Positions 1,919 through 19,978 are shown, counted from the stretch's first letter. The stretch: DNA of 26,772 nucleotides from Dehalococcoidia bacterium (GCA_023271515.1 JALPXQ010000008.1:1-26772), one strand, 5' to 3'. The notes: generated from the letters alone by a model not told the origin. A program made the numbers and translations.

Positions 1919-2689
1919 ATGGAGTATCGGGAAATAATCCTGCTGAAGCAGGGCGAAATGGCCAGGATCACCATCAACCGACCCCCGGTTAACGTGATGA
2001 CCTTGAACACCATAGCCGAGCTGAACCAGGCACTAGGGGGATTGAGGGAAGATCCCGAGGTCAAGGTGGTGATCATCCGGGGAAGCGGGGAGCGGGCCTT
2101 CTCCGCCGGCGTGGAGGTGGCCGACCATCTGGGCGAGAAGTTACCCTGGATGTTGGAGGAGTTTGGCCGGCTGTTTAAGTCGCTGAGGAATGTAGACAAA
2201 CCGATTGTAGCAGTGGTAAACGGCGTCGCTTTGGGAGGCGGTTGCGAGCTGGTGGCCGGGTGCGATATGGCTATCGCCTCGGACAAAGCTAAATTCGGTC
2301 AGCCGGAGATAAAGTAGGGTGTGAACCCTCCGCCGGCCAGCGTGCTTTTCCCCAAGATCATAGGGATGAAAAAGGCCCTGGAGTTGATCCTCACTGGCGA
2401 TTCCATAGATGCGTGGGAGGCGCAGAGGATAGGTCTGGTGAACAAAGTGGTCCCCCACGAAGAATTGGATCAGGCTGCGGAGGAATTCGCCAACCGACTT
2501 CTGGAGAAAAGCGGATACATACTGAAGTTGAGCCGGGAAGCCTTCTACAAGGTTAGCGAGATAAGCGACTATGAGAAGGCCCTTGACTTTATGAACTGCC
2601 GGTCGCGTAGGATCATGGAATCTGAGGACGCCGTCGAGGGACTGACCTCTTTCATCGAAAAGCGCAAGCCGGTCTGGAAAAACCGGTGA
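1919..2689 (+). pseudogene. Enoyl-CoA hydratase/isomerase (crotonase) family protein, interrupted by an in-frame TAG at 2315-2317 and split into 132 aa and 122 aa ORFs.
   Basis: The N-terminal part has the crotonase fold motifs (INRPPVNVMT, VIIRGSGERAFSAGVEV, VNGVALGGGCELVAGCDMAIA, KFGQPEIK). The C-terminal part continues in the same frame (KALELILTGD...). There is a Shine-Dalgarno site AGGAGGA upstream of ATG 1919. The TAG sits where the conserved Leu of FGQPEI-L-G is expected. Confidence 0.65.
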
Positions 2690-3806
2690 TGGCAAGTATA
2701 ATAGACGAACTGGAGCCCATCATTAATCCCCGAAGCATCGCCGTGATAGGAGCCTCAGATAATCCCGCTAAGCTGGGCTATCACTGCATGAAGAGCCTGA
2801 AAGAGAGCGGGCTTCAGTCCATATATCCCATAAATCCGCGCTCTTCGGAGATTTGGGGATTTCCGGCCTATTCCTCGCTGAGAGAGATAGATCAGGAAAT
2901 CGACCTGGCTATCGTGATTGTGCCGGCCTCTGCGGTTCCTTCAGCAATAGAGGATTGTGCCCGGAAGGGGATAAAAGGCATTGTCCTTATGACTGGTGGA
3001 TTCAGGGAAGCGGAAGATCTGGCGGGCTCCAGGATGAAATAGGTTTGCTGGCAAACAAGAGTAGAATCAGGGTGATCGGTTCCAACGCATTCGGTCCATC
3101 TAAATGCCTCCTTACCCCGGAATTCCTTGCTACTTGAGGGTAAGCCTTATAAGTCAAAGTGGCGAGATATGCCACCCTCCTTGCTGATGGAATCGGAGAA
3201 AGTAATCGGCTTTTCCAAGATCGTGGACCTAGGCAACCGATGCAAATTTTCCCAACATGCTGGAGTACCTGGCGGTGGACCTGGAGACCAGGGTGATCCT
3301 GATGTATCTCGAGGGGATAGATGATGCCCGCAGGCTTATCGAGATTGCTCGGTGAGTGGCGCCCCAAAAGCCCATAGTAGCCTTCAAGTCAGGAAAGATG
3401 ACCACTGCGGACAGAGCGGCTTATTCTCATACCGGTTCCCTGGCGGGAAAGCATAAGGTCTATCTCGCCGCTTTCAGGCAGGCCGGGATCCTGTTGGCAA
3501 GCGATTTCGAGGAATTGCTGGATATCTGACCCGAACGTTGATGCCCTCTTGTTTCTCTCTGCCTATGCCTCAGCCAACGAGCCCGTAATTAGAGCGCTCG
3601 CTGCAGTGCTGAGGGAGGAGATCGAGGCTCGCCGGAAGCCGATCCTCACCTGCTTCCCGACACCACTGCGAATCTGGGAGGAAAGGGTCGAGCTGGAGAA
3701 GAGCGGCATTCCGGTTTATGCTACGCCGGAGAGGGCGGCTAGATCTCTGGCAGGTTTGGTCTGCTACGGAGATATCCCGGCTTTGGCGCTATTCACGAAA
3801 ACTTGA
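2686..3806 (+). pseudogene. ADP-forming acetyl-CoA synthetase (acetate--CoA ligase) alpha subunit, heavily degraded. It has at least 4 to 5 frameshifts, an in-frame TGA at 3353-3355 and an apparent internal deletion of about 250 nt.
   Basis: An N-terminal CoA-binding domain is intact in ORF 2686-3042 (SIAVIGASDNPAKLGY...IVPASAVPSAIEDCARKGIKGIVLMTGGF). Homology then continues across three frames: LQDEIGLLANKSRIRVIGSN, HLNASLP, ISQSGEIC, GIGFSKIVDLGN, LEYLAVDLETRVILMYLEGIDDARRLIEIAR-TGA-VAPQKPIVAFKSGKMTTADRAAYSHTGSLAG. The C-terminal tail is in ORF 3549-3806. Total length is about 1.1 kb against about 1.4 kb expected. Confidence 0.7.
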
Positions 3807-4872
3807 ACCTCCCATATTTTTCCACCATTTTTTGGTCAATGGAAGGTCCCGTCTTGTGGATCACCTCCACTAAGTCTCTCATTTCCACATCCCTTGCAAT
3901 GCCGGTCTGGATATTCTCTCTAAAGGGGATCAGCGAGGCTTTAAGGCAGATCTGCCTTATGTCCGCGCCGCTATGACCCTCGGTCATCTGTGCCAGGTTG
4001 TCGAAATCAATATCCTCTGCCAGCGGCTTTCCCTGGAGATTCAATTCAAAAATCTTTTTCCTCGCCTGAGAATCAGGGAGAGGAACATAGATAGTCTCGT
4101 CAAATCTTCCCGGTCTAAGGGCAGCATGGTCAATGCTCCATGGCTCGTTGGTTGCCCCGATGAAGAGGAGGTTCTCATTTTTCGACTCCATCCCCTCCAT
4201 CTCCGCCAAAATCTGAGGAACAACCCGTTGCATCACCGTAGACCCGGAATCCTTCCTCTTTGGAATCAGTGCTTCAACCTCGTCAATAAAAATCACCGCT
4301 CTCTTCTGATTCCTCGCCGAAGAAAACAGCTTCGCTATATTCTGCTCACTCTCCCCGACCCACTTGCTCATAATTTCGCTCGGCTTTATGCTGAAGAATA
4401 CCGCATCCACTTCATTGGCAACCGCCTTTGCGATGTAAGTCTTGCCTGTGCCAGGGGGACCGTAGAGCAAGATTCCTCCCCCGGATCTGATCCCAAACCT
4501 CTTCGCCTCTTCAGGATATAGAAAAGGATAGATTATCTTGTTCTTGATCTCCTCTTTGATATTCTCCAGTCCTGCCACGTCGTCGAAGGTTACGGCAGGT
4601 CGTTCCTGCAAGATGAATTCTGCACCTTTTCCCCTTCCCGCAGCAGCCTCCTTTTCCTTAAGAGTGATAGACTTTGCCTTCTCCAGGAGTTTCTGGGCGT
4701 TTTCAACCCTTATCAGCTTCACCCTCCCCTGCGATTCGGAAGACGCATTAAAGAGTTGTCTGCTCGCCTGCAGGTAATAGTCTCTGGCTTTTCGCAACTC
4801 GCTTTGCGCTTCCGCCTTCATTGCCTCGGCGATATATTCTTCGGCTTTTTGAAGAAATACGTCAATGCTCAT
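3793..4872 (-). CDS. vps4: MIT-domain AAA+ ATPase, Vps4/CdvC-like (copy 1).
   Basis: It has an N-terminal three-helix MIT-like region. It has Walker A GPPGTGKT, Walker B IFIDEVE, arginine finger RPGRFDE and a Vps4-type C-terminal helix. Its start overlaps the stop of the upstream ESCRT-III-like gene. Confidence 0.85.
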   Translation of the reverse strand: MSIDVFLQKAEEYIAEAMKAEAQSELRKARDYYLQASRQLFNASSESQGRVKLIRVENAQKLLEKAKSITLKEKEAAAGRGKGAEFILQERPAVTFDDVAGLENIKEEIKNKIIYPFLYPEEAKRFGIRSGGGILLYGPPGTGKTYIAKAVANEVDAVFFSIKPSEIMSKWVGESEQNIAKLFSSARNQKRAVIFIDEVEALIPKRKDSGSTVMQRVVPQILAEMEGMESKNENLLFIGATNEPWSIDHAALRPGRFDETIYVPLPDSQARKKIFELNLQGKPLAEDIDFDNLAQMTEGHSGADIRQICLKASLIPFRENIQTGIARDVEMRDLVEVIHKTGPSIDQKMVEKYGRFKFS

Positions 4873-4875
4873 CGC

Positions 4876-5475
4876 CTACCCCTTCCGCATCATGTCCTCG
4901 ACTTCCTTGATGCCCCTGGAAATCCTCTCATCCAGGCCCTTTTCCTCAGTCTCTGCCTCCCCTTCCATTGTTTTTACAATTTCGTTGATGTCTCTATCAG
5001 AGAAACCTTCGGCACTCAAGATACCCTCGCTGGCCATGTCTAAAGTAGTGGACAACGCCTCGTCGATGCCCTCTGCCTGTGCCATCGCCTTCTCAAATTC
5101 CACCTGCATGCCGGCGATCTTTTCTACATCTGGGCCTTCGGTAATGGACTCGCTTATGTCCTTAGCAAAGGTTACAAAATCCCCGGAGATCTTGACCATC
5201 TCCCGTTGAAGTCTGGCCTCGTCCATCAGCAGGAGCATCCGCTGTCCCTTTCTTATCCGTTCCTGCAAGACCAGATATTTGGCAGCCTGCCTCTTCAAAA
5301 ACTTCTCTTCATTTAGTCTAGCCGCCTGCCTTCCCTGATCGTATATCGTCTTTTGCAGGTCCATCAGCTTCGAGATGTAGCCTTTAACCCTTGCTTTCGC
5401 CTTCCTGTACCTTATCTCCCTCTCGATCTCCTTCTCTTCCCTTGATTTTCCCTTCAACTTTTTCAATATGCCCAT
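4876..5475 (-). CDS. ESCRT-III/Snf7-like protein (copy 1). It is an all-helical protein of about 200 aa with a basic N-terminus and an acidic C-terminal tail.
   Basis: The N-terminus is MGILKKLKGKSREEK..., the sequence is predicted coiled coil, and the C-terminus is acidic (EGEAETEEKGLDERISRGIKEVEDMM, MIM-like). It is translationally coupled to the Vps4-like gene. There is a GGAG Shine-Dalgarno site 7 nt upstream of ATG 5475. Confidence 0.6.
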   Translation of the reverse strand: MGILKKLKGKSREEKEIEREIRYRKAKARVKGYISKLMDLQKTIYDQGRQAARLNEEKFLKRQAAKYLVLQERIRKGQRMLLLMDEARLQREMVKISGDFVTFAKDISESITEGPDVEKIAGMQVEFEKAMAQAEGIDEALSTTLDMASEGILSAEGFSDRDINEIVKTMEGEAETEEKGLDERISRGIKEVEDMMRKG

Positions 5476-5492
5476 TCTTTCACTCCTTTGAC

Positions 5493-5542
5493 GGGTTTAC
5501 GGTTCACGGTTCTGCATAGTCTAGAGTCTAGAGTCTAGAGTC
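5493..5542. promoter_or_regulatory. Upstream region of the ESCRT-III-like copy 1 gene. It carries a partial GGTTCACGGTTC motif followed by a (AGTCTAG)x3 heptad array, which equals three overlapping palindromic TCTAGA sites spaced 7 bp apart.
   Basis: The sequence is gggtttacggttcacggttctgcat agtctag agtctag agtctag agtc. It lies 20 to 70 nt upstream of ATG 5475 on the minus strand. Confidence 0.4.
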
Positions 5543-5561
5543 CCCCGCTCCACCCCTACCT

Positions 5562-6299
5562 TCAACCTTCAGCCTTCAGCCTATCCACCTGAGTAGCTAG
5601 GATTACAGTTATATTGTCCCTTCCGTCGGTCTCTTTCGCAGAGTTTATGAGCTTCTCGCAGGCTTCATCGAGGTCTTTTGAACTTATTATGATCCGTCTT
5701 ATTTCTTCACCCCGTAAGGAATCTGTCAATCCATCAGAGCACAACAACAGATATTGACCACAAATCCGGATCTCGTAGAGGTCAGGTTTTATATCGGCAT
5801 CCGTTCCCATCACCCTGGTAATGATATTCTTTTCCGGATGATCAAAGGCCTCCTCTTCTGAGATAATACCTCTATCCACCAGTTCTTGAACGAAGGAATG
5901 GTCCTTGGTCTGCTGCTTTATCTCCTCTCCTATCAGATAAGCCCTGCTGTCGCCTATATTTGCGATCACACATCTTTCTTCTTCAATCAAGGCAGCCACC
6001 AGCGTTGTGCCCATATTACTATAGTCTGGATTTTCCCGGGCTAAACTGTATATCTCCCTATTTGTCTTCTCAAAAGCCTGCTGAAGCAGCATCCTGAAGT
6101 CAGTAATCCCCTCGCTAAATCCTTTGTTCACCGCCTCTTCCAGCTCTATCACTGCCAGCCCACTGGCAATCTCGCCGGCGCTGTGCCCGCCCAGACCGTT
6201 GGCAACGGCAAGGAGGTAAATGTCGCCGAAGCGCGTTACCGCAAGGCTATCCTCGTTATTTGCTCTCTTCCCGCTGTCAGTAAGAGATGCTATCTTCAT
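5562..6299 (-). CDS. PP2C-family (PPM) Ser/Thr protein phosphatase.
   Basis: AVANGLGGHSAGEIAS, GTTLVAALI, ANIGDSRAY and LLCSDGLTD are the conserved PPM metal-binding motifs. Its start overlaps the kinase stop by 4 nt. Confidence 0.9.
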   Translation of the reverse strand: MKIASLTDSGKRANNEDSLAVTRFGDIYLLAVANGLGGHSAGEIASGLAVIELEEAVNKGFSEGITDFRMLLQQAFEKTNREIYSLARENPDYSNMGTTLVAALIEEERCVIANIGDSRAYLIGEEIKQQTKDHSFVQELVDRGIISEEEAFDHPEKNIITRVMGTDADIKPDLYEIRICGQYLLLCSDGLTDSLRGEEIRRIIISSKDLDEACEKLINSAKETDGRDNITVILATQVDRLKAEG

Positions 6300-8548
6300 C
6301 CTTCTGTCCTCGCTTTGCGGATAATTCTATCCATATCGTTTAATCTACGGGGTTCTAATGTTGGATCACGATGCTTAATGCAATGATTAAGGACACCGAT
6401 TTGCTGGTCGATCAAATCCTGTGTCTCACTGGATTTCACCTGGGTTTTTAAGGAATTCAGGTAATCGATACATTTGTTCAGCGCACTCAAGCGCGTCTCA
6501 CGATGTTCCGAGCTGCTATATGCCTGTCGTAAGAGCATATCCGACATCTCGCAATAGAGCGTTATTCTCTCCAGTCGTTCTATGGTTATCTTCACCTTTT
6601 GTTTGTGTTCTATTTCCAGAACGTCTGCCAAGTGATTATGGAGCTCTTCTATGCTCTGGTAGCGCCTCTCCTTTTCCTTCTCCAGACAGCGCATGATTAC
6701 AGGTTCGACGAATTTAGCTTCCTGGTTAATGCTTGAGGGTAAGGGAGGATCGTGCTTCTTTATTTTCTCCATTATGGCAGATTCATCGGCGGCTTCAAAG
6801 GGAGGCTTGCCGGTTACCAGCTCATAGAATATCTGACCGAGCTGGAATATGTCGGTTCTTCCATCTACCTTCCCTCCGCTTATCTGCTCCGGCGTGGCAT
6901 AGAGGGTAGTGTATCCTCTGGCTTGATCATCTGACTGCTTTGAAGCCCGTATCATCTTTGCCAGCCCCCAATCCACGATTTTCGGCTCCTTATTACCATC
7001 AAGCATGATATTGCCAGGCTTCAGGTCGAGGTGAAATACAGGTCGCGGTCTTCCATGAGCATATCTTAAGCCATCTGCTATCTTGAAGATCAGATGACCC
7101 GCTTTTCTCGGATCAAGCGGTATCAAATCCTCAATCGAGCCAGCCAGAAGCTCCATCTCGATATATGGCCTGGGATAAGAGCTATAGTCGTATATCGTGG
7201 CTATGTTCTTGTGATCGAGTTCCTTCCAGATTTGTATTTCGTCTATAAAGCTCTTGGCGGTCTTTTTATCATGGTACCTGGCGATCTTTATGGCCACCAT
7301 GGCACTGTCCTTCTTCCGCTGTGCGCGGTACACCCAGGAACTTCCACCCTCGCCGACGTATTTAGGTTGATGATAGTATTCATGGAGCTCCTCCGGAAAG
7401 GCGAACATCGGTTGGCCTTTTCTTATGCCAGGTCCAACTGCGGGTTCCAATGTTATATCCTCAACCTTTATTGGCTTTCGTACCTCGTCGCCTTTTGCGA
7501 CAGCGCTCCTTGCGCGGACCAGAGTATCGGTGCACAACCTTATATTTGCTGTGCAGGCATCAGTTGACTTTTCGATCCTTGTCTTTTCCTCTTCCAGACC
7601 GTGTTCGGCAGCAAGCTCACGAATGCCGTCGAAGTGTGTCTGAGCATTCCTGTATTGGTCTCTTGCTTTGAGGTATTCTCCCTTGTTGAACCACTTCTCG
7701 GCATCCTCGATTAGCCCGTTCCCGATTTCAATCTTTCCCTCCACCAAGCCTCTGTATGCCGTTGTTTTCAATTGGTTGTAGGTTGCGTTATCCGAGGAGA
7801 ACGATTCCAGGTACTTTATCACTTCTGAGAAGGCATTCTCCTTTTCCTTGCCTTTTTCCTTATTGGCCTGCTCGATTAACTTATCTCCCTTGTGCAGGAG
7901 GCATGCCTCGATGCTAACCTCCATGTTTGCTACTGCTCGATTGATCGTTGGCTCGTCCTCAAACCCGAATTTGCCTGCAACCCCAGCGCCTTTTGCATAC
8001 GTCTCTCTCGCTGACCGGAATCCTTCTCTGGCAGCATCGAAATCTCCTGCCTCAAACATTCTTTTCGCCTCGTTCACGGTCTTGTTTGCCTCATCAACGA
8101 GTGCAGCCATCTCTTTCCGGGCTCTGTTTACCGCAGCAGTCTTTATATCTTTCTCGATGCTTCCCATAGAGGGTTTAAGAGCCTCAACTATCTCCCCCTC
8201 GTTCCTTTCGCTCGCCAACTGCACCACACGGGTGTATTCTTCGAGAGCCCTTTCCCAGAGCGTTATGGCTTCTGAGTAATCTTCTCTCTGGTATGCCTCG
8301 CTGCCATCGTCGGCTATCTTTTTCGCTCTATCCAGAAGATATTCGGTAGTGGGTCTAGCGGCCAGTTGGGCCTTCTTGGTCAGCTCCAGCGCTCTTGCGA
8401 ACTCCTTCTTCTTCACCGATTCCGCCGCTTCCTTGAGGAGGCTCCTTGCCTCATCCAGGTTGGCGCCTATATGGTGCTGATTTATCAGACCTCTAGCAAC
8501 CTCCACTTCCTTGTGCAGCCCTTCGAGTTCTTTCACAATACTGCCCAT
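6296..8548 (-). CDS. Hanks-type Ser/Thr protein kinase with an N-terminal helical-repeat region of about 380 aa and a C-terminal tail of about 100 aa.
   Basis: The kinase domain spans about 6600-7400. Motifs are GEGGSSWVY, VAIK, HLDLKPGNIM, DWGLAK (a DFG variant) and YATPEQ. The start is ATG 8548 or TTG 8551, with GGAGG 8 nt upstream. Confidence 0.9.
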   Translation of the reverse strand: MGSIVKELEGLHKEVEVARGLINQHHIGANLDEARSLLKEAAESVKKKEFARALELTKKAQLAARPTTEYLLDRAKKIADDGSEAYQREDYSEAITLWERALEEYTRVVQLASERNEGEIVEALKPSMGSIEKDIKTAAVNRARKEMAALVDEANKTVNEAKRMFEAGDFDAAREGFRSARETYAKGAGVAGKFGFEDEPTINRAVANMEVSIEACLLHKGDKLIEQANKEKGKEKENAFSEVIKYLESFSSDNATYNQLKTTAYRGLVEGKIEIGNGLIEDAEKWFNKGEYLKARDQYRNAQTHFDGIRELAAEHGLEEEKTRIEKSTDACTANIRLCTDTLVRARSAVAKGDEVRKPIKVEDITLEPAVGPGIRKGQPMFAFPEELHEYYHQPKYVGEGGSSWVYRAQRKKDSAMVAIKIARYHDKKTAKSFIDEIQIWKELDHKNIATIYDYSSYPRPYIEMELLAGSIEDLIPLDPRKAGHLIFKIADGLRYAHGRPRPVFHLDLKPGNIMLDGNKEPKIVDWGLAKMIRASKQSDDQARGYTTLYATPEQISGGKVDGRTDIFQLGQIFYELVTGKPPFEAADESAIMEKIKKHDPPLPSSINQEAKFVEPVIMRCLEKEKERRYQSIEELHNHLADVLEIEHKQKVKITIERLERITLYCEMSDMLLRQAYSSSEHRETRLSALNKCIDYLNSLKTQVKSSETQDLIDQQIGVLNHCIKHRDPTLEPRRLNDMDRIIRKARTEG

Positions 8549-8553
8549 CAATT

Positions 8554-9735
8554 CTACCTCCTGCCTTGATTTACAACCTCATCTATCATCTCAAGAATCG
8601 CTCTCTTTTTCCTTTCAATCTCCTCCCTCTCGGCCTTCTTCTTTCGCCCGTAGGAAAAAATGCCTATTGACAGGATCACGGCAAAAGCAAGTGTCCCCAC
8701 GTAGATGTGATTGTTATTGATCGTCGGTGCAAAGTCTCTATAGTTGACCACGCCGTCTTGATCCAGGTCCATGGCAAGAGACTTTGCCCTTGTTGCCATC
8801 TCAAATGCCGTTTTATAATCTGCATCCTCAAATGCCTCCTCACTACCTGAAAGCAAAGCCTCGGCCATGGCTACATTGAATCCTCGTAGCTCTGCTACTC
8901 TAATTGCCTCCCTTGCCTGGTCGATCCCTTCAATGGCCAGTTCACCGTCTCTTTTAATCGTTTCTGCCGTAGTCTTTGCCTGCTCAGCAAGGGTTTTGGC
9001 GCGTCCAAAATGCCCTCCTGCAAGCGCCCTCTCGGCCTGCCGAAGAAGACCCTCAGCCTCTGTCATATCGAGCCCTTCGGCTCTCCCCCTTTGAATCGCT
9101 TTGGCGATCTCTTCAATGATAGCGGCAATTAGTGCTTCTTCCGATTCAACCTTTATCAGCCAGAGATCACTCTCACCTGCGCCAAAAGACATTGTCCAAC
9201 CGGTTACGATAAATCCGCCGTCATCGGTCTGCTGGACTGAGAGGCCCGAATCACTTTTTGCGCCACCGAATGTGCGGCTCCACTCCTTATTCCCCGCAGA
9301 ATCGGTCTTTATCAGCCAGAGATCCGACTCACCTGCGCCGAAAGACCCTGTCGTTCCGGTTACGATAAACCCGCCGTCAACCGTCTGCTGGACTGAGCAG
9401 CCCCAATCCCTGGCTGTGCCACCGAACGTGCGGCTCCACTGCTTATTACCCGCAGGATCGGTCTTTATCAGCCAGAGATCCGACTCACCTGCGCCAAAAG
9501 AGCGTGTCCAACCGGTTATGATAAATCCGCCGTCAGTTGTCTGCTGGACTGAGAGGCCCCGATCAGATTCTGCGCCACCAAATGTGCGGCTCCACTCCTT
9601 TGCCGGCGCTCGCTCTGTGGTCTCGTCAGCCACGGCCACGCCTACGAGAGGGAAAGGGAACGCCGTTACCAGCGCGGCAACCATAAGCACCACTGCCACC
9701 CCAAACAGGATTGGTGTCAGACTTTTCATGATCAA
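8554..9735 (-). CDS. Type-I membrane surface protein. It has a signal peptide, 3 tandem blade-like repeats of about 47 aa, a helical repeat, a DxDGVVN motif, a C-terminal TM helix and a conserved basic cytoplasmic tail.
   Basis: There is an N-terminal hydrophobic signal. There are three copies of [42 protein letters not shown]. The C-terminus is [55 protein letters not shown]. Confidence 0.75.
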
Positions 9736-9769
9736 AACCTCCCTGAAGATTCTTAGCGCCTCCCCCTAC

Positions 9770-10012
9770 TCATTTCCCCATTTCCCTCTCAATCCCTCTC
9801 TCCCAAATGTGCTTTGCCTCTTCAATGCTTTCATCACTGATTTTAACACTCTTCCAGATTCCTCGAAGAGAGATCACCTCCCCCTCTGGTGGAGTTTTCT
9901 GGGGCTCCCCATGAAGGATTTGCATTCTTACTCGCTCGTTCTCTCTTAAGCCAACTTTGTCCAGAAGTTTGATCACCCCTTTTTGATAGATGCCCTCTAT
10001 GACCTCGGCCAT
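9770..10012 (-). CDS. Small DUF104-like protein (archaeal antitoxin-like), orphan.
   Basis: The N-terminus MAEVIEGIYQKGVIKLLDKVGLRENERVRMQI resembles archaeal DUF104 antitoxin-type proteins. There is a GGAGGT Shine-Dalgarno site 7 nt upstream of the ATG. There is no PIN or other toxin partner adjacent. Confidence 0.45.
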   Translation of the reverse strand: MAEVIEGIYQKGVIKLLDKVGLRENERVRMQILHGEPQKTPPEGEVISLRGIWKSVKISDESIEEAKHIWERGIEREMGK

Positions 10013-10042
10013 TTTCGTTACCTCCGCTAGTTTTTGCCCACA

Positions 10043-11653
10043 CTACCCCCTGCCCTCATTTACAACCTCATCTATCATCTCAAGAATCGCTCTCTCTTTC
10101 CTTTCAATCTCCTCCTTCTCGGCCTTCTTCCGTCGGCGGCGAAAAGAAACGCCTGCTGATGCAGAGATAAGGCCCAGGACAAGAAGAAATGCTCCCATGT
10201 AGATATGATTGTTGTTGATCGTCGGTGCAAAGTCTTCATGGTTGACCACGCCGTCCCGATCCACATCTAAGGCAAGCGATTTTGCGGTTGCGGCCAGTTC
10301 TACCGCTCTTTCATACTCTCTATCATCAAATGCGCTCTCAGCCTGAGAAAGCGAGCTTTCGGCCTCCACAACATCGAAACCTTTTGCCCTTTCCTGAGAG
10401 ATTACCTGCCTTGCTTCTTCGATAGAGCTTCTTGCCAGTCTCAGTTCTCTGGTAATTTCTTCCGCTTTTGCCTTTGCCTGCCGGGCAAGGCTTATGGCTC
10501 CTCCAAAATCCCCTCCTGCAAGTGTCTCCTCAGCCTGCGAAAGTACACCCTCCGCCTCGGTCATATCGAGTCGTTTGTCTATCCCCTCCTCGATTGCATC
10601 CCTGGCCTGGTTGATCGCATCAAGCGCTGCCTGAGCTTCCCCTTTTACCTCTCGTGCGGTAACCTCTGCCTGCTGGGCAAGGCTCATGGCTTCTCCATAA
10701 TCCCCTCCTGCAAGCGCCCTCTCGGCCTGCCGCAGGAGATCCTCAGCCTCAGCCATATCGAGCCCTTCGGCTCTGCCTGTTGTTATTGCCTCCTTTGCTT
10801 GCTCGATCTGCTCCAGTGCCGCTGCCCTTCTAATCCCTTCTACCTTAGCCTCTGCCTGCTGGGCAAGGCTTATGGCTTGTTCAAAATCCCCTCCTGCAAG
10901 TGCCCGCTCGGCCTGCCGAAGGAGACGCTCGGCGTCTGTCATATCAAGCCCTTCGGCTGTTCTGGCTTCGATTACTTCTCTTGCTTTGTCGATCTCTTCA
11001 ATCGCTGCTTCAGCATCCTCTTTAATGCCTTCTGCTTTAGTCTTTGCCTGCTCAGCAAGGCTTACGGCTCTTTCAAAATCGTCTGCTGCAAGCGCCCTCT
11101 CGGCCTGCCGGAGGATATCCTCAGCTTCAGCCATGTTGAGCCCTTCGGCTCTCCCGGCTTCGATTGCCTCCCTTGCCTGGGCGATGGCATTGATGGCAAA
11201 TTGAGGCATGGGGATTTCAACAAGGTTATGGTGGATGATCTGCGCGGCATGCTGGACTATTATCCGCGGCCGCACCCTATCGGCGAGGATAGAAACCTCG
11301 CCCGGGACTTGAATAAGGTTATGGTGGATGATCTGCGCGGCATGCTGGATTATAATGCGGGGCATCACCTCACCTGCGAGGCTCACCAGGGTCTCCGCAG
11401 GCTCCACAAGGTCAAATTCTTGCACGCTGTCGGCGTCTTCCACGACAATCTCAGGGCCGCTTGCGGCATGCACCCTGGAATTTACCGCCAGATATGCCGA
11501 TACGGCCAGCACCAACGCGGCCAGAATCAAGACCATCAGGGGGATTCTCCCCCTGAAACCCCCTGAAGAGCGGTCATCCTTAGGATTTTTAAAGGAGCTT
11601 CGCTCCTTTATTCTCCAGGGCGGTTTACACTGGTTTATCCTTATCCTGAACAA
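10043..11653 (-). CDS. Type-I membrane surface protein, paralog of 8554-9735. It has a signal anchor, a 2x 31-aa tandem repeat and 5 helical repeats of about 37 aa. It ends with a DxDGVVN motif, a TM helix and the conserved tail.
   Basis: The C-terminus [72 protein letters not shown] is nearly identical to the upstream paralog at the DNA level. It contains repeats of the form [32 protein letters not shown]. The true start may be the internal Met near 11536 (MVLILAALVLAVSAYLA). Confidence 0.7.
   Translation of the reverse strand: MFRIRINQCKPPWRIKERSSFKNPKDDRSSGGFRGRIPLMVLILAALVLAVSAYLAVNSRVHAASGPEIVVEDADSVQEFDLVEPAETLVSLAGEVMPRIIIQHAAQIIHHNLIQVPGEVSILADRVRPRIIVQHAAQIIHHNLVEIPMPQFAINAIAQAREAIEAGRAEGLNMAEAEDILRQAERALAADDFERAVSLAEQAKTKAEGIKEDAEAAIEEIDKAREVIEARTAEGLDMTDAERLLRQAERALAGGDFEQAISLAQQAEAKVEGIRRAAALEQIEQAKEAITTGRAEGLDMAEAEDLLRQAERALAGGDYGEAMSLAQQAEVTAREVKGEAQAALDAINQARDAIEEGIDKRLDMTEAEGVLSQAEETLAGGDFGGAISLARQAKAKAEEITRELRLARSSIEEARQVISQERAKGFDVVEAESSLSQAESAFDDREYERAVELAATAKSLALDVDRDGVVNHEDFAPTINNNHIYMGAFLLVLGLISASAGVSFRRRRKKAEKEEIERKERAILEMIDEVVNEGRG
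11222..11407. repeat. 93-bp tandem direct repeat (2 copies) within surface protein gene 10043-11653.
   Basis: aaggttatggtggatgatctgcgcggcatgctgga occurs at 11222 and 11315. It encodes the duplicated 31-aa segment PRIIIQHAAQIIHHNL. Confidence 0.8.
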
Positions 11654-11814
11654 AGGTTCACCTCCCGTCGCGAGCGCATGCCCGAGATGGCAATCATGCC
11701 TTGTCCATCAGTCTAAAGGGTGGAGCAAAGACCAGGTTCATCCCTCTCGGTAGACAAGGACGATAGCAAATGATCCTGCCCACACCCTCGCGATTTGGTG
11801 GAACACATCTGGCC

Positions 11815-12513
11815 TTAGCTGAGCCGGTGAGAGTGTTCCATGTGAGTCTGCTCCCGCAACTCGCTCTCCATCAATATTAAGGGGGGGGGGTCGGTCATGA
11901 ACGACCTCTCAAAGACGGTTAAGGCCCCGGGTATCTTGAGGTTAAAGCTGTCATGGTCAACAATGATCATCATCCTATCAGCATCGGGGTGTCTGAAGTC
12001 GTAGTGTTTTACCTCGGCAATACCCACTCCAGCAGCCGTGGTTACCTGCATCAGTACTCTCTCCAGCCTTGTGCTGCCCAAATCCCCCAGGTCAATTATC
12101 CTGGCTACCGGATGCTCGCGGCCATAAAAGGCCACTATCCAACCATTCCGGTGGAGAAAGACATGTGCATCCCACTCTTCGTCGTGCCCAGGCACTCCGA
12201 CTGAGCCGATAATGTATTCATCCGTCTCGCGCTCTATCGTTCTGAATGCCCCCCTTGCCCTCACCAGATCAATCTCCCGGCCCACATTGGTAAAGGCCGA
12301 GATTCCCGCCTGCTCCTCAAGGAAATTGGCCCCCGCTGTTCCGGCGGCAAACGCCGGCCGCGCCAGGGTGATCAGTCCGGATATTCCGGCCGCCGCGCGG
12401 GGAGTCTCGCCGCCCCCCGCCCCGGAACCCGGTGGGATAAAGACCGGAACCGCGGCAACGATCACCGCCAGGACTACCAAAGCCCCACCAATCCTCCAGA
12501 TATGCTTCCTCAT
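11815..12513 (-). CDS. Secreted or membrane-anchored protein of unknown function, with an N-terminal TM or signal sequence.
   Basis: It is a 232 aa ORF with a hydrophobic N-terminus (GGALVVLAVIVAAVPVFI). It contains a G10 homopolymer at 11881-11890 that encodes PPP near the C-terminus. Confidence 0.5.
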   Translation of the reverse strand: MRKHIWRIGGALVVLAVIVAAVPVFIPPGSGAGGGETPRAAAGISGLITLARPAFAAGTAGANFLEEQAGISAFTNVGREIDLVRARGAFRTIERETDEYIIGSVGVPGHDEEWDAHVFLHRNGWIVAFYGREHPVARIIDLGDLGSTRLERVLMQVTTAAGVGIAEVKHYDFRHPDADRMMIIVDHDSFNLKIPGALTVFERSFMTDPPPLILMESELREQTHMEHSHRLS

Positions 12514-12595
12514 GGTTTACCTCCCTAAAATAGAGATTTTGCTTGGTCTGATCAGACATGCTTTTACACGATGCCCCTCCTCGTATCCATCGCCG

Positions 12596-15500
12596 TCAGG
12601 CAGCTCGTCTTTTTATGAGTAAGACGATCAGTCCTAGCGCTGCAATTCCGGCTGCGATCCACGGGTTCGCCTGAACAAGCTGAATAAGCTGAGCAAGTAG
12701 TCTTTCACCAATGCGAAGTAGTCTTTCGCCAATATCAAGTAGTCTTTCACCAATGTCTGGTGCCTGGGGCAAGACCACCTCGACTATTGTTGAGAAACTA
12801 TTTATCACCCCATCGTTATCTGCTATCGTCAGTGTTACCATATAGTCTCCAGCAACTGAAAAGCTATGCTCGATTACCCTACCAGTTCCAGTGGTTCCAT
12901 CCCCAAAGTCCCATTCATAGGATATTATCTCGCCATCAGGGTCAGACGAACCAGACGCATCGAAGGTGATGGGCTGATCTACAATCATCTCCTCCGGGGA
13001 GTATGCAAAAGATGCGATTGGTTGTTGAAGCATTCTCTGTTCCTCAAATACCCCGTCGCCATCAGCATCCGTCTTCATGGTAACCCCTGCCTGGACGGGA
13101 ACTTCTGTATCAATAACAAATCGGTGTGTTGTAGTCTCTGTCGTGGGGACATCAGTAATAGCAAAACTCTCAATTTGTCCTTCCACGCTAGAAATCGTTG
13201 TTAATCGATATGTTGCCTCCTCTATACCTGCAACCTCTAAGTAATAGATGCCAGTTGGAGCAAATATAGTAACAATCTTATTTTCCGTATCATACATTGA
13301 ATATGGAATTTCTTCTTTTACTACTCCATCTACTAAACCAGTAACTCGTCCCTGAGAATCGTAAACCCGTAACTCTCCAGGACTGGCAAATGCTACAACT
13401 CTGAGGTCAGCAGGCAATATATTCAGAAATTCTCTTCTGATAAAATGTGCTGCGATATTCTTGTGAGAATCCATCCTGATAGTGGTAACGGGTGCATGTA
13501 CATCTGCAATAGTCCCAACATCTCCTTTCCAACCAACAAACTTCCAACCTGGAGCAGGATATGCCCTAATTTCTACTTGTTTTAGTTCTCCTCTAGGAAA
13601 AATAGTATCTCCAGGTTTATTAACTGTCCCCTCGCCAATAATATCCATTGAAAGTGTTACATCTTCGGAAATGAAGGTAACCAATGCAAACCCTATTATT
13701 GGATTCCCCCTCCAAAAATCTTGATATACACCTATTCCAAGACTTACAAGAGTATTTCCTGCAGCTCTAATAAGATTAATAGGAGCAAGGAGACGGTCTA
13801 TAACCCACCCTTTACCATACTCCCTAACTGTATCAGATTTTGCAATATCAAGTAAAAGTGGTGGTAAAGAATTAAGTACGACTTCACGCCCTTCAGGACA
13901 GAATACAATAGTTCTAGGAGTTAACACAAGCTGCCCCATCTGTAATAATGTTCTAGATTGAATATATTCTACAACTTCTTTTAAATGCTCATGATCCTCA
14001 AATTCTATATAAAGTTGTAATGCAAACTTAGGTTCAGCCGGAACTCCAAATACTCCTAATGCTGCTGATAATAATTCCATTGCTATTGCAACGTGCACTA
14101 TCGCCATTTCAACTTCCAATATATCTCCAGGTAGAAGAGTATTAAGCTTCACCGTGTATGTTACGCTTCCCTTAGGAGGGACTAGTCTAAAATAATTACC
14201 AAAACTTTCTTTCTGAAGATGTTCCATAAAGCCATCTATACTTTCTAAAGTTACATCTTCCCTAATAAACCGAGGTTTAAATTCAACCCACATATCTAAA
14301 GAGTTGTGTACAGTTAGCTCAACAATGCGCTTCTCCTCATCGACATATATAGGAGCAGATCCCCTTATACGCCAATCATCACCGCTAATTTTAAAAAACG
14401 CTGTTTTATATGGTAGTGCCGGCGGGGTGACTTCTAGTGCCTCGGTGAAGGTCCTTGAAGCCAGGTGCCGATCCCCAGCATCTATCCTGCCGTTGTTGTT
14501 GACATCCTCCACCAGAGAGACGAGCAGGTTATACCTGCCTGGGGGTGCATCTGTCGGCATTACAAACGAACGCTGGACGGTGCTGGAACCTGAAACGATG
14601 GCGACCTGGCGATCATTGGCCGGATCGCTCAGAGGCGATCTCCCGGGCAACTGGATGCTGGCCCCCAACAGAACCGTCCTTGTGGGCCCTGGATTTGCCA
14701 CGTTGTATGTAATGGTGATCGTCTCTCCGGCCGCAGCGGTGCTGGGTGACGGGTGAGCAGATGTGATTGTTGGGTCTGGTGGTGGCGCCGGCGGGGTGAC
14801 TTGTAGTGCCCCGGTGAAGGTCCTTGAAGCCAGGTGCCGATCCCCGGCATCTATCCTGCCGTTGTTGTTGACATCCTCCACCAGAGAGACGAGCAGGTTA
14901 TACCTGCCTGGGGGTGCATCTGTCGGCATTACAAACGAACGCTGGACGGTGCTGGAACCTGAAACGATGGCGACCTGGCGATCATTGGCCGGATCGCTCA
15001 GAGGCGATCTCCCGGGCAACTGGATGCTGGCCCCCAACAGAACCGTCCTTGTGGGCCCTGGATTTGCCACGTTGTATGCAATGGTGATCGTCTCTCCGGC
15101 CGTAGCCGTGCTGGGTGACGGGTGAGCAGATGTGATTGTTGGGGCTGGTGGTGGTGCCGCCAGTAGACGAAGCCTGCTGGGCGTGGAGCTGCCAATGTTG
15201 TTATTCTCATTCGATTCGGTGACTTGTTTAAAGCCATCAACAAAGACTGTCACATAGTAATCCCCCGGGGCAGGAACTGCTGATGGGATGGCGTTAGTGG
15301 TGATAGTGAGCGTTCTAGAGGCACCAGGACCGAGCGAGGCTACAGGGAAATTGCCCAAACCGTGGCGAGTTCCCCATCGACGGGTGGATAGAGAAACACG
15401 GAGGTGGAATGAGCCCGAGGCGGCATCACCCCGGTTTTTCACTGTAAAAGCAACCGAAATTTCATCGCCGTGAGCTACCTCAGCAGGGTCGAAGGTGACG

Positions 15501-15631
15501 CGGGTCGTCACAGTAAGATCAGGGAGTCCAGCGCTGGCTATCGCGGTGGGTACTGTCAAAGCGCTCGCGCTGAACAGCAGCAGGGTGGTCATAAGGATGG
15601 CGAAAATGCTGAGAGTAGTTCTCTTTTGCAT
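12596..15631 (-). CDS. Large surface adhesin-like protein of 1011 aa. It has a signal peptide, a CARDB-like domain, 2 identical Ig-like repeats of 123 aa, a central domain of unknown function, a PKD domain and a C-terminal TM anchor preceded by 3x IGERLL.
   Basis: The N-terminal signal is followed by a CARDB-like segment (PDLTVTTRVTFDPAEVAHGDEISVAFTVKNRGDAASG). The PKD motif is ITFDASGSSDPDGEIISYEWDFGDGTTGTG...GDYMVTLTIADNDG. The C-terminus is PWIAAGIAALGLIVLLIKRRAA. There is an AGGAGG Shine-Dalgarno site upstream of ATG 15631. Confidence 0.8.
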   Translation of the reverse strand: MQKRTTLSIFAILMTTLLLFSASALTVPTAIASAGLPDLTVTTRVTFDPAEVAHGDEISVAFTVKNRGDAASGSFHLRVSLSTRRWGTRHGLGNFPVASLGPGASRTLTITTNAIPSAVPAPGDYYVTVFVDGFKQVTESNENNNIGSSTPSRLRLLAAPPPAPTITSAHPSPSTATAGETITIAYNVANPGPTRTVLLGASIQLPGRSPLSDPANDRQVAIVSGSSTVQRSFVMPTDAPPGRYNLLVSLVEDVNNNGRIDAGDRHLASRTFTGALQVTPPAPPPDPTITSAHPSPSTAAAGETITITYNVANPGPTRTVLLGASIQLPGRSPLSDPANDRQVAIVSGSSTVQRSFVMPTDAPPGRYNLLVSLVEDVNNNGRIDAGDRHLASRTFTEALEVTPPALPYKTAFFKISGDDWRIRGSAPIYVDEEKRIVELTVHNSLDMWVEFKPRFIREDVTLESIDGFMEHLQKESFGNYFRLVPPKGSVTYTVKLNTLLPGDILEVEMAIVHVAIAMELLSAALGVFGVPAEPKFALQLYIEFEDHEHLKEVVEYIQSRTLLQMGQLVLTPRTIVFCPEGREVVLNSLPPLLLDIAKSDTVREYGKGWVIDRLLAPINLIRAAGNTLVSLGIGVYQDFWRGNPIIGFALVTFISEDVTLSMDIIGEGTVNKPGDTIFPRGELKQVEIRAYPAPGWKFVGWKGDVGTIADVHAPVTTIRMDSHKNIAAHFIRREFLNILPADLRVVAFASPGELRVYDSQGRVTGLVDGVVKEEIPYSMYDTENKIVTIFAPTGIYYLEVAGIEEATYRLTTISSVEGQIESFAITDVPTTETTTHRFVIDTEVPVQAGVTMKTDADGDGVFEEQRMLQQPIASFAYSPEEMIVDQPITFDASGSSDPDGEIISYEWDFGDGTTGTGRVIEHSFSVAGDYMVTLTIADNDGVINSFSTIVEVVLPQAPDIGERLLDIGERLLRIGERLLAQLIQLVQANPWIAAGIAALGLIVLLIKRRAA
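14400..15137. repeat. Perfect tandem duplication, 2 copies of 369 bp differing by a few SNPs, inside adhesin gene 12596-15631.
   Basis: The block starting near 14421 (ggcggggtgacttctagtgcc...) recurs at 14790. The two ORF-track antisense ORFs 14304-14756 and 14763-15125 are near-identical. The duplication encodes a duplicated Ig-like module of 123 aa. Confidence 0.9.
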
Positions 15632-15752: not shown

Positions 15753-17009
15753 TCAGCCTACCTTATATTCCCTGGCAGCCTCTATCAACTCCCTGAACAT
15801 CTCACCCTCTCCCGTTCCGCTTAATTCTTTGACTGCTTTTGGATACCAAGAAGCAAGCACAGTCTTCTTCCCTTTCAACACCTGGTCGAAGTCTTCCATC
15901 GTTATCTCTCTCCTGGGGGTCATCTCTTTGATCCTCTCCCCCAGGGGAATCATTGCCGCCTTCTCACAGATATCTGCGATCTCAGCGCTGGCATATCCCT
16001 CGGTGATCTCTGCCAGTCTCTGCAGACTGACTGATCTGGAGACAGGCTTATTCTTCAGATTTATCTCCAGGATTTTTTTGCGAGCCTCAATATCGGGATG
16101 GGGGAGGAAAACCGTTGTATCGAACCTCCCTGACCTTCTCAAAGCAACATCAACAGCCCAGGGGCGATTGGTAGCTGCAAGAACAAGATAGCGTTTAGTT
16201 GTGCCTTTCGCTTCCAGACCATCCATCTGTGATAACAGCTCGCTTACCAGGCTTCTCTCGTGCCCCTCCATTGACCCGGAGCGCTCCCCTGCCAGGGAGT
16301 CGAACTCATCGAAGAATAACATTGCCTTTTCATAGCTTCTGGCAACGTTGAAGATTTCCTTGATGTTTTTCTCGCTTTCTCCTACGTATTTGTCCTTGAT
16401 ATCGCTGCCTTTTAGACTGACGAAGGCTGCATCGGATTCGGCCGCCGCCGCCGCCGCGAGCATCGTTTTTCCGCATCCCGGAGGACCGTATAAGAGAATC
16501 CCCCCACCCGGTTTAACCCCAAAGTACTCGTACTCCTCCGGGTACTTGAAGGGATAAACAATTGCCTCCTTGATGTTCTCCTTTACTCTGGCTAAACCGG
16601 CGATATCGCTGAATCTTATCTTCGGTTTTTCCGCCAGGATCAGACCTTTAACCCTCTCCCCTGTCTTTTCTTTCTCTATCCTCCCCCCGGGTGTCTTTTT
16701 AACCCCTTCCTCCGGTGGTATCATGCCATCCGTATATACTTTAACAGTCCCTTCTTTGAGCCCCTCGGCGATCTCCCTGAATTTCTTGGATCTGTCCAGC
16801 AGCTCTTTTCGCTTATCCCTCGGTGACATATCTGCAAGATGCTCCAGGAATTTAGCGCACTTTAAGTACTCCACACTGGCTTTCGCCATGCTGCCTTCAT
16901 CATAGTGCCTCCTGGCCAGATTAAGGGATTTCTTATACTCGGCTTGGACCGCATCTCTCAGCTCCATACTTATTCCCTCCATAGTCGGGTTATCGGGTTC
17001 AGGGTTCAC
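15753..17009 (-). CDS. vps4: MIT-domain AAA+ ATPase, Vps4/CdvC-like (copy 2). The likely true start is ATG 16967 (MELRD...).
   Basis: It has an MIT-like N-terminus. It has Walker A GPPGCGKT, Walker B LFFDEFD, RSGRFDT and a Vps4-like C-terminus. The ORF-track start 17009 is GTG. An internal ATG at 16967 is preceded by GGAGGGA with a 6 nt spacer. Confidence 0.85.
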   Translation of the reverse strand: MNPEPDNPTMEGISMELRDAVQAEYKKSLNLARRHYDEGSMAKASVEYLKCAKFLEHLADMSPRDKRKELLDRSKKFREIAEGLKEGTVKVYTDGMIPPEEGVKKTPGGRIEKEKTGERVKGLILAEKPKIRFSDIAGLARVKENIKEAIVYPFKYPEEYEYFGVKPGGGILLYGPPGCGKTMLAAAAAAESDAAFVSLKGSDIKDKYVGESEKNIKEIFNVARSYEKAMLFFDEFDSLAGERSGSMEGHERSLVSELLSQMDGLEAKGTTKRYLVLAATNRPWAVDVALRRSGRFDTTVFLPHPDIEARKKILEINLKNKPVSRSVSLQRLAEITEGYASAEIADICEKAAMIPLGERIKEMTPRREITMEDFDQVLKGKKTVLASWYPKAVKELSGTGEGEMFRELIEAAREYKVG

Positions 17010-18355: not shown

Positions 18356-19978
18356 TCACCTCAAATAGCCCCGCTCGAGTCTAACCGTATCTCCAACATC
18401 CACCCCCAGTATATCTCTCACCATCCTGTTGACCTTGATCACATCTCGATCACCGTCATCCAGCGGGCGAACGGTTACAAGATGTTCCCTGCCGGAAAAG
18501 ACAATTCTTGCCCGATCAATCCCTTGCAGACCCAGCCGTTCCATTATCTCTGGGTGAACCCGCACGACATTGCCGTATCTATCCTTCGGATGTGGATGGG
18601 TTACCCGCAGCAGTATCTCAACTGACTGGCTGCAAATTGTCTCCACCATATTGATTGGAATGCCGGTTTCAATTGATAATGCAAAGATCTCTTTTCTCAG
18701 TTGATCTCCCTTCACACCAGCCAACCGCTCCTGCATTTTCCTCAATTCTTCCGGTGCTATGTCAAATCTCTCCGATAGGCTCTTGCTATCTTTCCCTGTA
18801 ATCTTTTCAACGCCATCAGAGGTTTGGGATATGGTTTCAAGATCAGACAGGCTGTCCAGTAATTGTTGCATATGATTTCTCAACCCGGGAAGCTCTGTTT
18901 TCGCCATCGCCACATTCAAGATATCCCTTGCTCTTGCATAATGACGCAAGGACGCATCATCATCCCCGGTATGCCGCAGAAGGTCTGCAAGCAGCATCTC
19001 CTCATAGCCACCAAGTATCGTGCTGAGTGCATCTATCCCCGTTGCGATTTCGGTCTTACCTATCTTCTCAAAGTACAACCTGCTCGCCTCAAATGATGAT
19101 CTTGCCTGGCTGATCTCTGATTGTAGTAGAGATAGGTGATCATCATTGTGGCTTAACATCAGATGCATCAGTTGTGTCAGGTGGGCCCAGCCATTACAGA
19201 ACCTGCTGCTTGTAAATAACCCCTCCCTTGTCTCTTCCGAATCTGCATGGAGAGCTGCTTCATAATACATCTTTGCTGCCGCAAGGAAACGGTGCTTGGC
19301 AGCACGGTAATCCCCTTCTCTGTATGATGCTGCCCCCTCCTGCTCGTTATGGATTGCCATCTCGAGCGGCCTCTTTGTCTCAACGATCTCCTTTGCAGGT
19401 GTAACTATTATGTGGCGACCGATAGGTACTCGGAGGTAATCTTCAAAAGCCAGTCCGTACCTCTCCTCCAGGTAATCTCTCATTCCCTTTGGCAACTGAC
19501 CGAATACCGCATTCTTAGCGATCGGATCCATTGGGACCTGTTCACCAGTTGACTGCTGCAGCTCGATATACACGTGCTCTGGAAGGATCACAAAGATGGG
19601 TTCAAATCCGATGGAGCCGAGCATCGCGGCAAGCAGGATCGCCTGGTCATCACAATCCCCGGCGCTGACCTCCAGTGTCGCCACCGCCGGCTGGAAGTGA
19701 TCACCGGGCGGATCATTGATATACTCAATGTTGTCTCGCACCCAGAGAAAGATCGCCTCAGCCACCTTATTGCGATCCGCATCACTCATCCTCTTGACAT
19801 CAAGCGGCGCATCATAAATCTTCTTCACCACCTCGTATGCCGTCTTCCTTACAACAGGTTCTCGTGAGCCCCTTTTTGCCTGCTCAATCATCTCGGCTAC
19901 CTTCAGTATTTTCCTTGACGGCATAAAATTGAGGGAGCCGCAAGAGGTATCACCCGGGGATACTTTCCCATCTCTCAT
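18356..19978 (-). CDS. Transglutaminase-like cysteine protease domain protein. It has a central TPR-like helical region and a C-terminal Cdc48/VAT-N-like double-psi barrel segment.
   Basis: The transglutaminase-like core motif is SAGDCDDQAILLAAMLGSIGFEPIFV, with downstream His and Asp. The C-terminus NVVRVHPEIMERLGLQGIDRARIVFSGREHLVTVRPLDDGDRDVIKVNRMVRDILGVDVGDTVRLE resembles the Cdc48 N-domain. Confidence 0.6.
   Translation of the reverse strand: MRDGKVSPGDTSCGSLNFMPSRKILKVAEMIEQAKRGSREPVVRKTAYEVVKKIYDAPLDVKRMSDADRNKVAEAIFLWVRDNIEYINDPPGDHFQPAVATLEVSAGDCDDQAILLAAMLGSIGFEPIFVILPEHVYIELQQSTGEQVPMDPIAKNAVFGQLPKGMRDYLEERYGLAFEDYLRVPIGRHIIVTPAKEIVETKRPLEMAIHNEQEGAASYREGDYRAAKHRFLAAAKMYYEAALHADSEETREGLFTSSRFCNGWAHLTQLMHLMLSHNDDHLSLLQSEISQARSSFEASRLYFEKIGKTEIATGIDALSTILGGYEEMLLADLLRHTGDDDASLRHYARARDILNVAMAKTELPGLRNHMQQLLDSLSDLETISQTSDGVEKITGKDSKSLSERFDIAPEELRKMQERLAGVKGDQLRKEIFALSIETGIPINMVETICSQSVEILLRVTHPHPKDRYGNVVRVHPEIMERLGLQGIDRARIVFSGREHLVTVRPLDDGDRDVIKVNRMVRDILGVDVGDTVRLERGYLR

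Follow-up and report, generated by a model that had tools for sequence, protein, structure and literature searches.

The locus described here raises a simple question: is the acdA gene of a Dehalococcoidia bacterium, which should encode the alpha subunit of an acyl-coenzyme A (CoA) synthetase, truly dead, or does an intact, shortened or recoded gene lie behind its broken reading frame? The gene lies on the forward (+) strand at positions 2689–3806 of a 26,772-nt contig (JALPXQ010000008.1 of assembly GCA_023271515.1), the whole of which we analysed and refer to as the window. An earlier note on this DNA, made from the sequence alone, described 2686–3806 as an ADP-forming acetyl-CoA synthetase alpha gene disrupted by frameshifts, an in-frame TGA and a deletion; homologs and relatives place the host among Dehalococcoidia bacteria and not among archaea. 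We consider it very probable that 2689–3806 is a non-functional relic (pseudogene) of such an alpha-subunit gene, which was once translationally coupled to a gene for enoyl-CoA hydratase (crotonase). This reading is carried by the observations by which a pseudogene is recognized: intact orthologs are present at the same position, multiple disabling lesions go beyond what a single repair could mend, and lesions are found in independent genomes. The loci used for comparison came from assemblies of the 'AH-958' Dehalococcoidia group, with L003 and L057 as outgroups. The group belongs to the order SZUA-161 and the family SpSt-899 and its genomes are 52–66% complete (PMC10570749); the plate-well style of the assembly names suggests that they are single amplified genomes.

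DNA alignment to the intact orthologs of loci L001 and L002 delimited the remnant and identified it as derived from the gene for a 471-aa NDP-forming acyl-CoA synthetase (ACD) alpha protein. No long open reading frame (ORF) is present in 2686–3806, the longest being 118, 57 and 85 aa, and three-frame and piecewise translation showed ACD-alpha homology spread over all three forward frames, as had been claimed before. When the intact protein P0001 (471 aa, encoded by a Dehalococcoidia bacterium on JALPYJ010000004.1, which is locus L001) was compared with the whole window by tblastn, three high-scoring segment pairs in frames 1, 2 and 3 covered residues 1–200, 162–294 and 378–471, residues 295–377 were missing, and no second acdA copy was found within the 26,772 nt. 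The stitched translation is 81% identical to P0001, far above chance, and contains the Pfam domains Succ_CoA_lig (PF13607, E = 4.8e-44) and CoA_binding_2 (PF13380, E = 2.2e-24), the former divided over four frames and interrupted by two TGA codons. The Pfam search found no match to the third domain, Ligase_CoA_2 (PF19045), in the stitched protein; P0001, a single 471-aa ORF, matches it weakly (E = 4.9e-4). The ATG of acdA at 2689 overlaps the TGA stop codon of the crotonase gene (2687–2689) by one base, forming TGATG at 2687–2691, and the original acdA stop codon is the TGA at 3804–3806. The adjacency of crotonase and acdA is also found in L003, and no gene for an ATP-grasp beta subunit lies beside acdA in the window, L001, L003 or L057. 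P0001 clearly belongs to the family named in the earlier note, but it scores only 432 bits against TIGR02717 (acetate--CoA ligase ADP-forming alpha equivalog), for which the curated cut-off is 567, so that the acetate or acetyl-CoA specificity implied by that note cannot be taken as established. The safest name would be the alpha subunit of an NDP-forming acyl-CoA synthetase without substrate assignment, apparently translationally coupled to enoyl-CoA hydratase.

P0001 aligns end-to-end with the ACD alpha proteins of known structure, namely the 457-aa Pyrococcus protein (2csu, residues 9–457, E = 1.8e-98) and ACD1 of Ca. Korarchaeum cryptofilum (4xyl, residues 6–460, E = 4.3e-87). It keeps the CoA_binding_2 and Succ_CoA_lig domains, the weak match to Ligase_CoA_2 and the motif SHTGS(L/I)AG, which is conserved in both solved structures. 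In contrast, the copy in the window is scattered over no fewer than eight frame segments, and ∼85 residues are missing from its C-terminal domain; the intact ortholog also differs in being paired with the gene for enoyl-CoA hydratase rather than with that for the beta (ATP-grasp) subunit. In the window, the motif reads AYSHTGSLAG and its histidine codon CAT (3428–3430, +) is retained, yet stranded among stop codons. We take this histidine to be the phosphohistidine.

Lesions were placed by nucleotide alignment of the window to L001 and the other relatives. In total, the reading frame of acdA is shifted by seven deletions, six of them small and one of 254 bp, and is stopped by two nonsense codons, with zero net insertions. 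All were mapped on the + strand. The small deletions removed 7 bp at 3025/3026, 17 bp at 3090/3091, 1 bp within a T run at 3111/3112, 7 bp at 3140/3141, 7 bp at a poly-C site at 3175/3176, and 5 bp at 3245/3246. Both nonsense codons are CGA to TGA changes: at 3135–3137, intact orthologs read CGA (Arg) and both L156 and L157 read TTC; at 3353–3355, between LIEIAR and VAPQKPIVAFKSGK, every aligning relative reads CGA (Arg). The 254-bp deletion (∼85 codons; 3525/3526, junction GGATAT/CTGACCC) takes residues ∼295–378 out of the C-terminal domain, and the frameshift that it causes brings in a new stop codon, TGA at 3527–3529. Downstream of it, the C-terminal tail (residues ∼378–471; 3526–3806, +) continues in a third frame, with 94% amino acid identity to P0001 over 3522–3803 in tblastn; it can be called as an 85-aa ORF (3549–3806), and equivalent 85-aa ORFs are annotated elsewhere (P0125 and P0129). 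Codon starts along acdA, taken modulo 3, run 1, 0, 1, 0, 2, 1, 2, 0 and match exactly the frames predicted from the deletion sizes. The earlier note had placed frame switches near 3030, 3085, 3125, 3170 and 3245, which agrees well in position, but there are six switches and not five, those at 3111 and 3140 having been merged as 3125; it also located the TGA at 3353–3355 exactly while missing the one at 3135–3137, and the jump to the C-terminal tail that it described, with ∼85 aa missing, is the 254-bp deletion. Correction of a single indel at most comes nowhere near restoring a continuous frame in alignment to intact ACD alpha. A full-length product would thus be impossible from this gene, and at most an N-terminal CoA-binding fragment of 117 aa could be translated.

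Could the gene be read in spite of these changes, through an alternative genetic code, programmed frameshifts or read-through of stops? All that speaks for such recoding is that TGA and TAG codons stand in frame. Six frame changes of unlike sizes would be needed, and conserved residues have gone with the deletions, among them FGFVNL and 85 residues of the C-terminal domain. Moreover, TGA and TAG terminate the conserved C-termini of the crotonase, acdA and hdrA-like genes in the window and its relatives, and close relatives encode the acdA protein in one frame. We therefore give recoding next to no credence.

The allelic state of acdA in the sister genomes supports a relic. In L001 and L002 the gene is intact (471 aa) and lies in the same place between the same flanking genes, the order in L001 being crotonase (256 aa), acdA (471 aa), AAA ATPase, a 199-aa protein, PP2C phosphatase and Ser/Thr kinase. 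L004 (AH-958-J08) carries the 254-bp deletion as its only deletion, with the identical junction, together with a CAT to CGT change that replaces the histidine of the SHTGS motif by arginine. L157 combines the 254-bp deletion with the 17-bp, 1-bp, 7-bp (after 3140) and poly-C lesions. L156 has the 7-bp deletion after 3025 and the 17-bp, 1-bp, 7-bp (after 3140) and poly-C lesions, and leaves homology at approximately window position 3398 for another neighbourhood. L158 and L159 have in common a distinct 3′ truncation at approximately window position 3283: at an identical junction (∼2261–2400 in L158 and ∼2696–2800 in L159), what is left of acdA runs into a radical SAM/SPASM gene at its 3′ end, and the crotonase gene is missing in both. 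Here the acdA locus has been rearranged in another way and on a larger scale. A 117-aa ORF with the same end as in the window (...AEDLAGSRMK before the stop codon) is present in L156 (P0124), 294-aa products ending in ...FEELLDI (P0123, with two accessions, and P0131) fit the 254-bp deletion, and truncated acdA products annotated in other assemblies measure 294, 175, 153, 117 and 85 aa; intact 471-aa products number at least five among the matches listed (15 of the 32 cluster members). Altogether L004, L156 or L157 share five of the window's seven deletions, with the same junctions, and the 254-bp deletion, present in L004 and L157, is implied by three further annotated products. Because these lesions are shared with sister assemblies, they are inherited mutations and not sequencing artefacts, and the view of the locus as a genuine relic rather than the product of a single sequencing error holds. 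The window contains the most damaged acdA allele found, and sister genomes hold nested subsets of its lesions.

The genes upstream were also affected. The crotonase gene (1919–2689, +) is cut by a TAG codon at 2315–2317, where L001, L004, L156 and L157 have CTG (Leu); two base changes separate CTG from TAG. The whole crotonase gene is missing in L002, L158 and L159, and L156 has it joined to a piece of hdrA, an arrangement that was seen in a single assembly and is possibly a chimera. Because the crotonase gene has a nonsense codon here and is deleted in three relatives, the crotonase-acdA operon is being lost across the population. Further upstream, a gene for an HdrA-like Fe-S flavoprotein that also resembles the glutamate synthase small subunit (1–1849, +, truncated where the contig ends) is split because a G run has lost 1 bp; the run has six G at 462–467 in the window and seven in L002, L004 and L158. 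Its 59 window-specific substitutions comprise 35 synonymous and 24 nonsynonymous changes, 38 of them at third codon positions. This gene is without visible decay, and the change from G7 to G6 could be recent or an error. The earlier note had seen the whole hdrA-crotonase-acd block as decaying; this applies at the population level to crotonase and acdA, and only weakly, through that single change, to hdrA. Between hdrA and crotonase, L004 has an insert of ∼490 bp (8679–9170) that is missing from the window, containing a small ORF which resembles, by eye only, GxxExxY or PD-(D/E)XK-type small proteins. At the start of the L001 contig, just upstream of crotonase, ∼50 bases (1–53) with repeated CTGTGAAC motifs are unrelated to the hdrA-crotonase spacer of the window; the assembly may have broken there on a repeat or on the end of a mobile element.

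With these changes in hand, the possibility can be weighed that single-cell amplification, sequencing or assembly produced the lesions and that the real gene is intact in the cell. The sister assemblies appear to be single-cell genomes of low completeness (52–66%, PMC10570749), and amplification can make chimeras. Five changes occur in the window only, namely the 5-bp deletion after 3245, the TGA codons at 3135 and 3353, the crotonase TAG and the shortened G run of hdrA, and the deletion at the poly-C site varies in length between assemblies (6, 7, 8 or 10 bp) in the manner of homopolymer errors. However, separately assembled genomes that differ elsewhere have five of the seven junctions in common, deletions of 5–254 bp and a two-base codon change are atypical of short-read errors, and the other 23 kb of the window consists of uninterrupted long ORFs that match relatives. 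The variation at 3175 may be explained by the loss of 6 bp, which would have left a C7 run, and by later homopolymer slippage. Moreover, acdA is already dead without counting the window-only lesions, which alone might be artefacts, and we judge it very unlikely that the damage as a whole is artefactual.

We then asked how the damage is distributed. All six small deletions and the TGA at 3135–3137 fall in a diverged patch at 3020–3250 (+), in which 15.4% of aligned sites differ from L001, as compared with 3–5% in the flanks. Synonymous divergence (dS) is 0.50 in the patch and 0.07–0.10 in the flanks, the former being on a par with that which separates L001 from L003, a much more distant locus. 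The probability that six small deletions fall by chance inside 221 of 1121 bp is ∼0.002 by a rough, hand-made scan-statistic estimate. The 1.2 kb of acdA hold 55 window-specific substitutions and the next 2.9 kb hold 10, and 23 of the 32 changes that could be polarised as derived in the window, with L003 and L057 as outgroups, are GC to AT transitions. A burst of hypermutation within 3020–3250 was considered and rejected: most variants in the patch occur beyond the window, those at 3020–3087 also in L156, those at 3102–3167 also in L156 and L157 and those at 3201–3207 also in L157 and L159, and some match outgroup states. These observations point to the patch as an old mosaic haplotype and not a private burst of mutation. 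The combinations of lesions give all four gametes, the 7-bp deletion after 3025 being found, for example, in the window and L156 and the variants at 3201–3207 in the window and L157; no single tree fits, and the acdA alleles are therefore recombinant mosaics.

Upstream of the patch, and reaching into it, lies the longest piece that could still be translated, an open fragment of 117 aa (2689–3042, +) that contains most of the CoA-binding Rossmann domain and ends at a premature TAA (3040–3042) in the frame shifted by the first deletion. It is entered in the public record as MCL0059159.1, 'CoA-binding protein', and matches the solved ACD-alpha structures 2csu (E = 3.5e-26) and 4xyl (E = 1.8e-21). 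The gene may then have been remodelled, the fragment persisting as a functional stand-alone CoA-binding domain protein. Stand-alone CoA-binding proteins of ∼140 aa do exist (PF13380; PDB 1y81, 2d59 and 1iuk), and the 117-aa ORF matches them with E values from 1.7e-12 to 1.8e-07; the same ORF is present in the window and L156, its start is still coupled to the crotonase reading frame, and the ratio of nonsynonymous to synonymous divergence (dN/dS) between the two alleles is 0.14 over the 5′ 110 codons (12 synonymous and 6 nonsynonymous differences). However, the coupled crotonase gene is itself cut by TAG in the window, and the fragment stops at positions ∼95–100 of the 116-position CoA_binding_2 profile, its tail residues being out of frame. 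Unlike the stand-alone proteins, it derives by truncation from a protein of three domains; its own domain is incomplete, its tail is frameshifted, and it shows no sign of function. The counts of differences are very small, and L158, which is without the frameshift, carries the 5′ variants of L156. Because this 5′ variation is common to alleles without the frameshift, it is older haplotype variation moved by recombination, and a functional fragment seems to us very improbable.

Several observations nevertheless weigh against the interpretation of acdA as a pseudogene, or against its simplest form. The lesions and the divergence are clustered in 3020–3250, and simple, uniform neutral decay predicts otherwise. 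The dN/dS values are well under 1, at 0.19–0.42 by segment, which is low for a pseudogene. Between the window and intact alleles dN/dS is raised, at 0.26–0.30 as compared with 0.11 between L001 and L002, both intact, yet far from 1, and recombination and old haplotype variation confound these values; among lesion-bearing alleles the 5′ 110 codons give 0.14–0.19, with which retained selection on the 5′ ORF is possible. The 5-bp deletion and both TGA codons are window-only and so less certain, and the same applies to the crotonase TAG and the hdrA G-run change; when metagenomes were scanned with the intact ortholog, the best match had 84% identity, too distant for an independent check of window-only lesions. 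A paralog or a beta subunit may be present elsewhere in the genome; the scan of genomes for relatives used very specific peptide patterns, which could miss a distant paralog. We attribute the low dN/dS of acdA to standing variation from functional haplotypes and recombination, mixed with later neutral change, and the clustering of lesions could reflect an indel-rich, diverged tract that resists recombinational replacement by intact alleles. In favour of a pseudogene, independent signs of loss of function are the His to Arg change in the SHTGS motif of L004, the other 3′ truncation in L158 and L159, and the deletion of crotonase in L002, L158 and L159.

On the pseudogene reading, events may have run as follows. 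Selection on the crotonase-acdA pair would have been relaxed in the population, and inactivating deletions would have arisen, namely the 254-bp deletion, the cluster of 1–17-bp deletions and, in other cells, the larger 3′ truncations. Homologous recombination would then have shuffled lesions between acdA alleles, while GC to AT-biased substitutions, including the two CGA to TGA changes, presumably went on accumulating. Large losses at the 3′ end of acdA, by truncation or deletion, were found in at least three distinct forms, in addition to the cluster of small deletions and the separate crotonase deletions. We hold it possible, but rather unlikely, that a single subsurface population of Dehalococcoidia is losing the pair over and over in independent events, with recombination spreading null alleles and lesion tracts and with 3020–3250 forming an 'island of decay' since its indels and ∼15% divergence block repair. 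If true, the AH-958 genomes would provide a natural single-cell snapshot of gene death in a population that recombines, and selection for loss might be what drives it.

Bacterial pseudogenes in reductive genomes are said to decay under deletional bias, as Mira, Ochman and Moran in 2001 and Kuo and Ochman in 2010 reportedly described. The acdA locus resembles them in its many small deletions, GC to AT bias and nonsense codons, in the intact orthologs nearby and in the polymorphism of intact and null alleles in one population, and differs in that its lesions are packed in a deeply diverged tract of 230 bp and that the four-gamete violation indicates recombining null alleles. Decay of acdA is an ordinary case of a polymorphic pseudogene in a bacterial population and brings no change to general understanding, and the intact, lightly damaged and heavily damaged sister alleles neatly illustrate how a gene dies step by step while its alleles recombine. 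For annotation, the result means that MCL0059159.1 and the other small ORFs are best read as pseudogene pieces, and metabolic reconstructions of the low-completeness AH-958 group should credit this locus with neither a functional ADP-forming acyl-CoA synthetase nor a functional enoyl-CoA hydratase. A literature search on ACD in Dehalococcoidia found nothing directly relevant. Later members of SpSt-899 have been suggested to have lost the capacity for acyl-CoA and aromatic degradation, and the loss of acdA fits this suggestion (PMC10570749).

The neighbouring island of kinase and ESCRT genes, which the earlier note described as intact, is so: the first three genes downstream of acdA encode 359, 199 and 245 aa, as in L001, and the fourth 751 aa as compared with 749. 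Because the host is a bacterium, this module of kinase, PP2C, Snf7-like protein and AAA ATPase (3793–8551, − strand) is the more unusual feature of the window. Its first gene (3793–4872, −) encodes a single-domain CdvC/Vps4-like AAA ATPase of 359 aa, with a full-length match to NCBIfam CdvC of 258 bits (cut-off 650) and a weak MIT match (E = 0.007). The second (4876–5475, −) encodes an all-helical protein of 199 aa that belongs to a divergent Snf7/ESCRT-III family, in which Pfam Snf7 was detected in 11 of 32 aligned members (best E = 1e-5). A PP2C phosphatase of 245 aa and then a Ser/Thr kinase of 751 aa continue the module past it. For the 199-aa protein, single-sequence AlphaFold prediction was too poor (predicted local distance difference test, pLDDT, 53), and a model built from the alignment (pLDDT 73) was used instead; its top Foldseek matches in the PDB are CdvB2, CdvB and CHMP proteins, with weak E values of 0.16–0.3. 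The ESCRT label therefore extends as far as a divergent Snf7-like family together with a CdvC/Vps4-like ATPase, and nothing firmer. The closest named homologs (68–75% identity) are in metagenome-assembled genomes binned as archaea (Hydrothermarchaeales and Halobacteriota) that have the same module, and loci L160 and L161 are related to it. A review of the PspA/Snf7 superfamily reports that Vps4-like ATPases were transferred to bacteria, but with snf7 displaced (PMC11237479); a literature search on Vps4 with ESCRT-III in Chloroflexota found nothing directly relevant. The module may therefore be little described and may reflect transfer between archaea and bacteria or mis-binning.

Beyond the kinase, further genes of the island, all on the − strand, suggest functions in membrane remodelling or of AAA ATPases. 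They encode a protein with MIT-like and DUF4398 repeats (10043–11653), a CARDB/PKD surface protein of 1011 aa (12596–15631), a second AAA ATPase (15753–17009), a protein with a transglutaminase core and a CDC48_N domain (18356–19978) and a zinc-ribbon and Band-7/SPFH protein (20234–22048). The G+C content drops to 0.38–0.42 at 13000–14500, inside the CARDB/PKD ORF, as against ∼0.48–0.60 elsewhere; it is 0.56–0.63 in the hdrA-crotonase block and ∼0.48–0.50 in the island. Downstream of the kinase, repeat-rich proteins (8554–12709, compared with 7022–11753 of L001) align by BLAST in pieces that are 74–95% identical, shuffled and multiply matching, which suggests that their internal repeats evolve rapidly between otherwise near-identical sister genomes.

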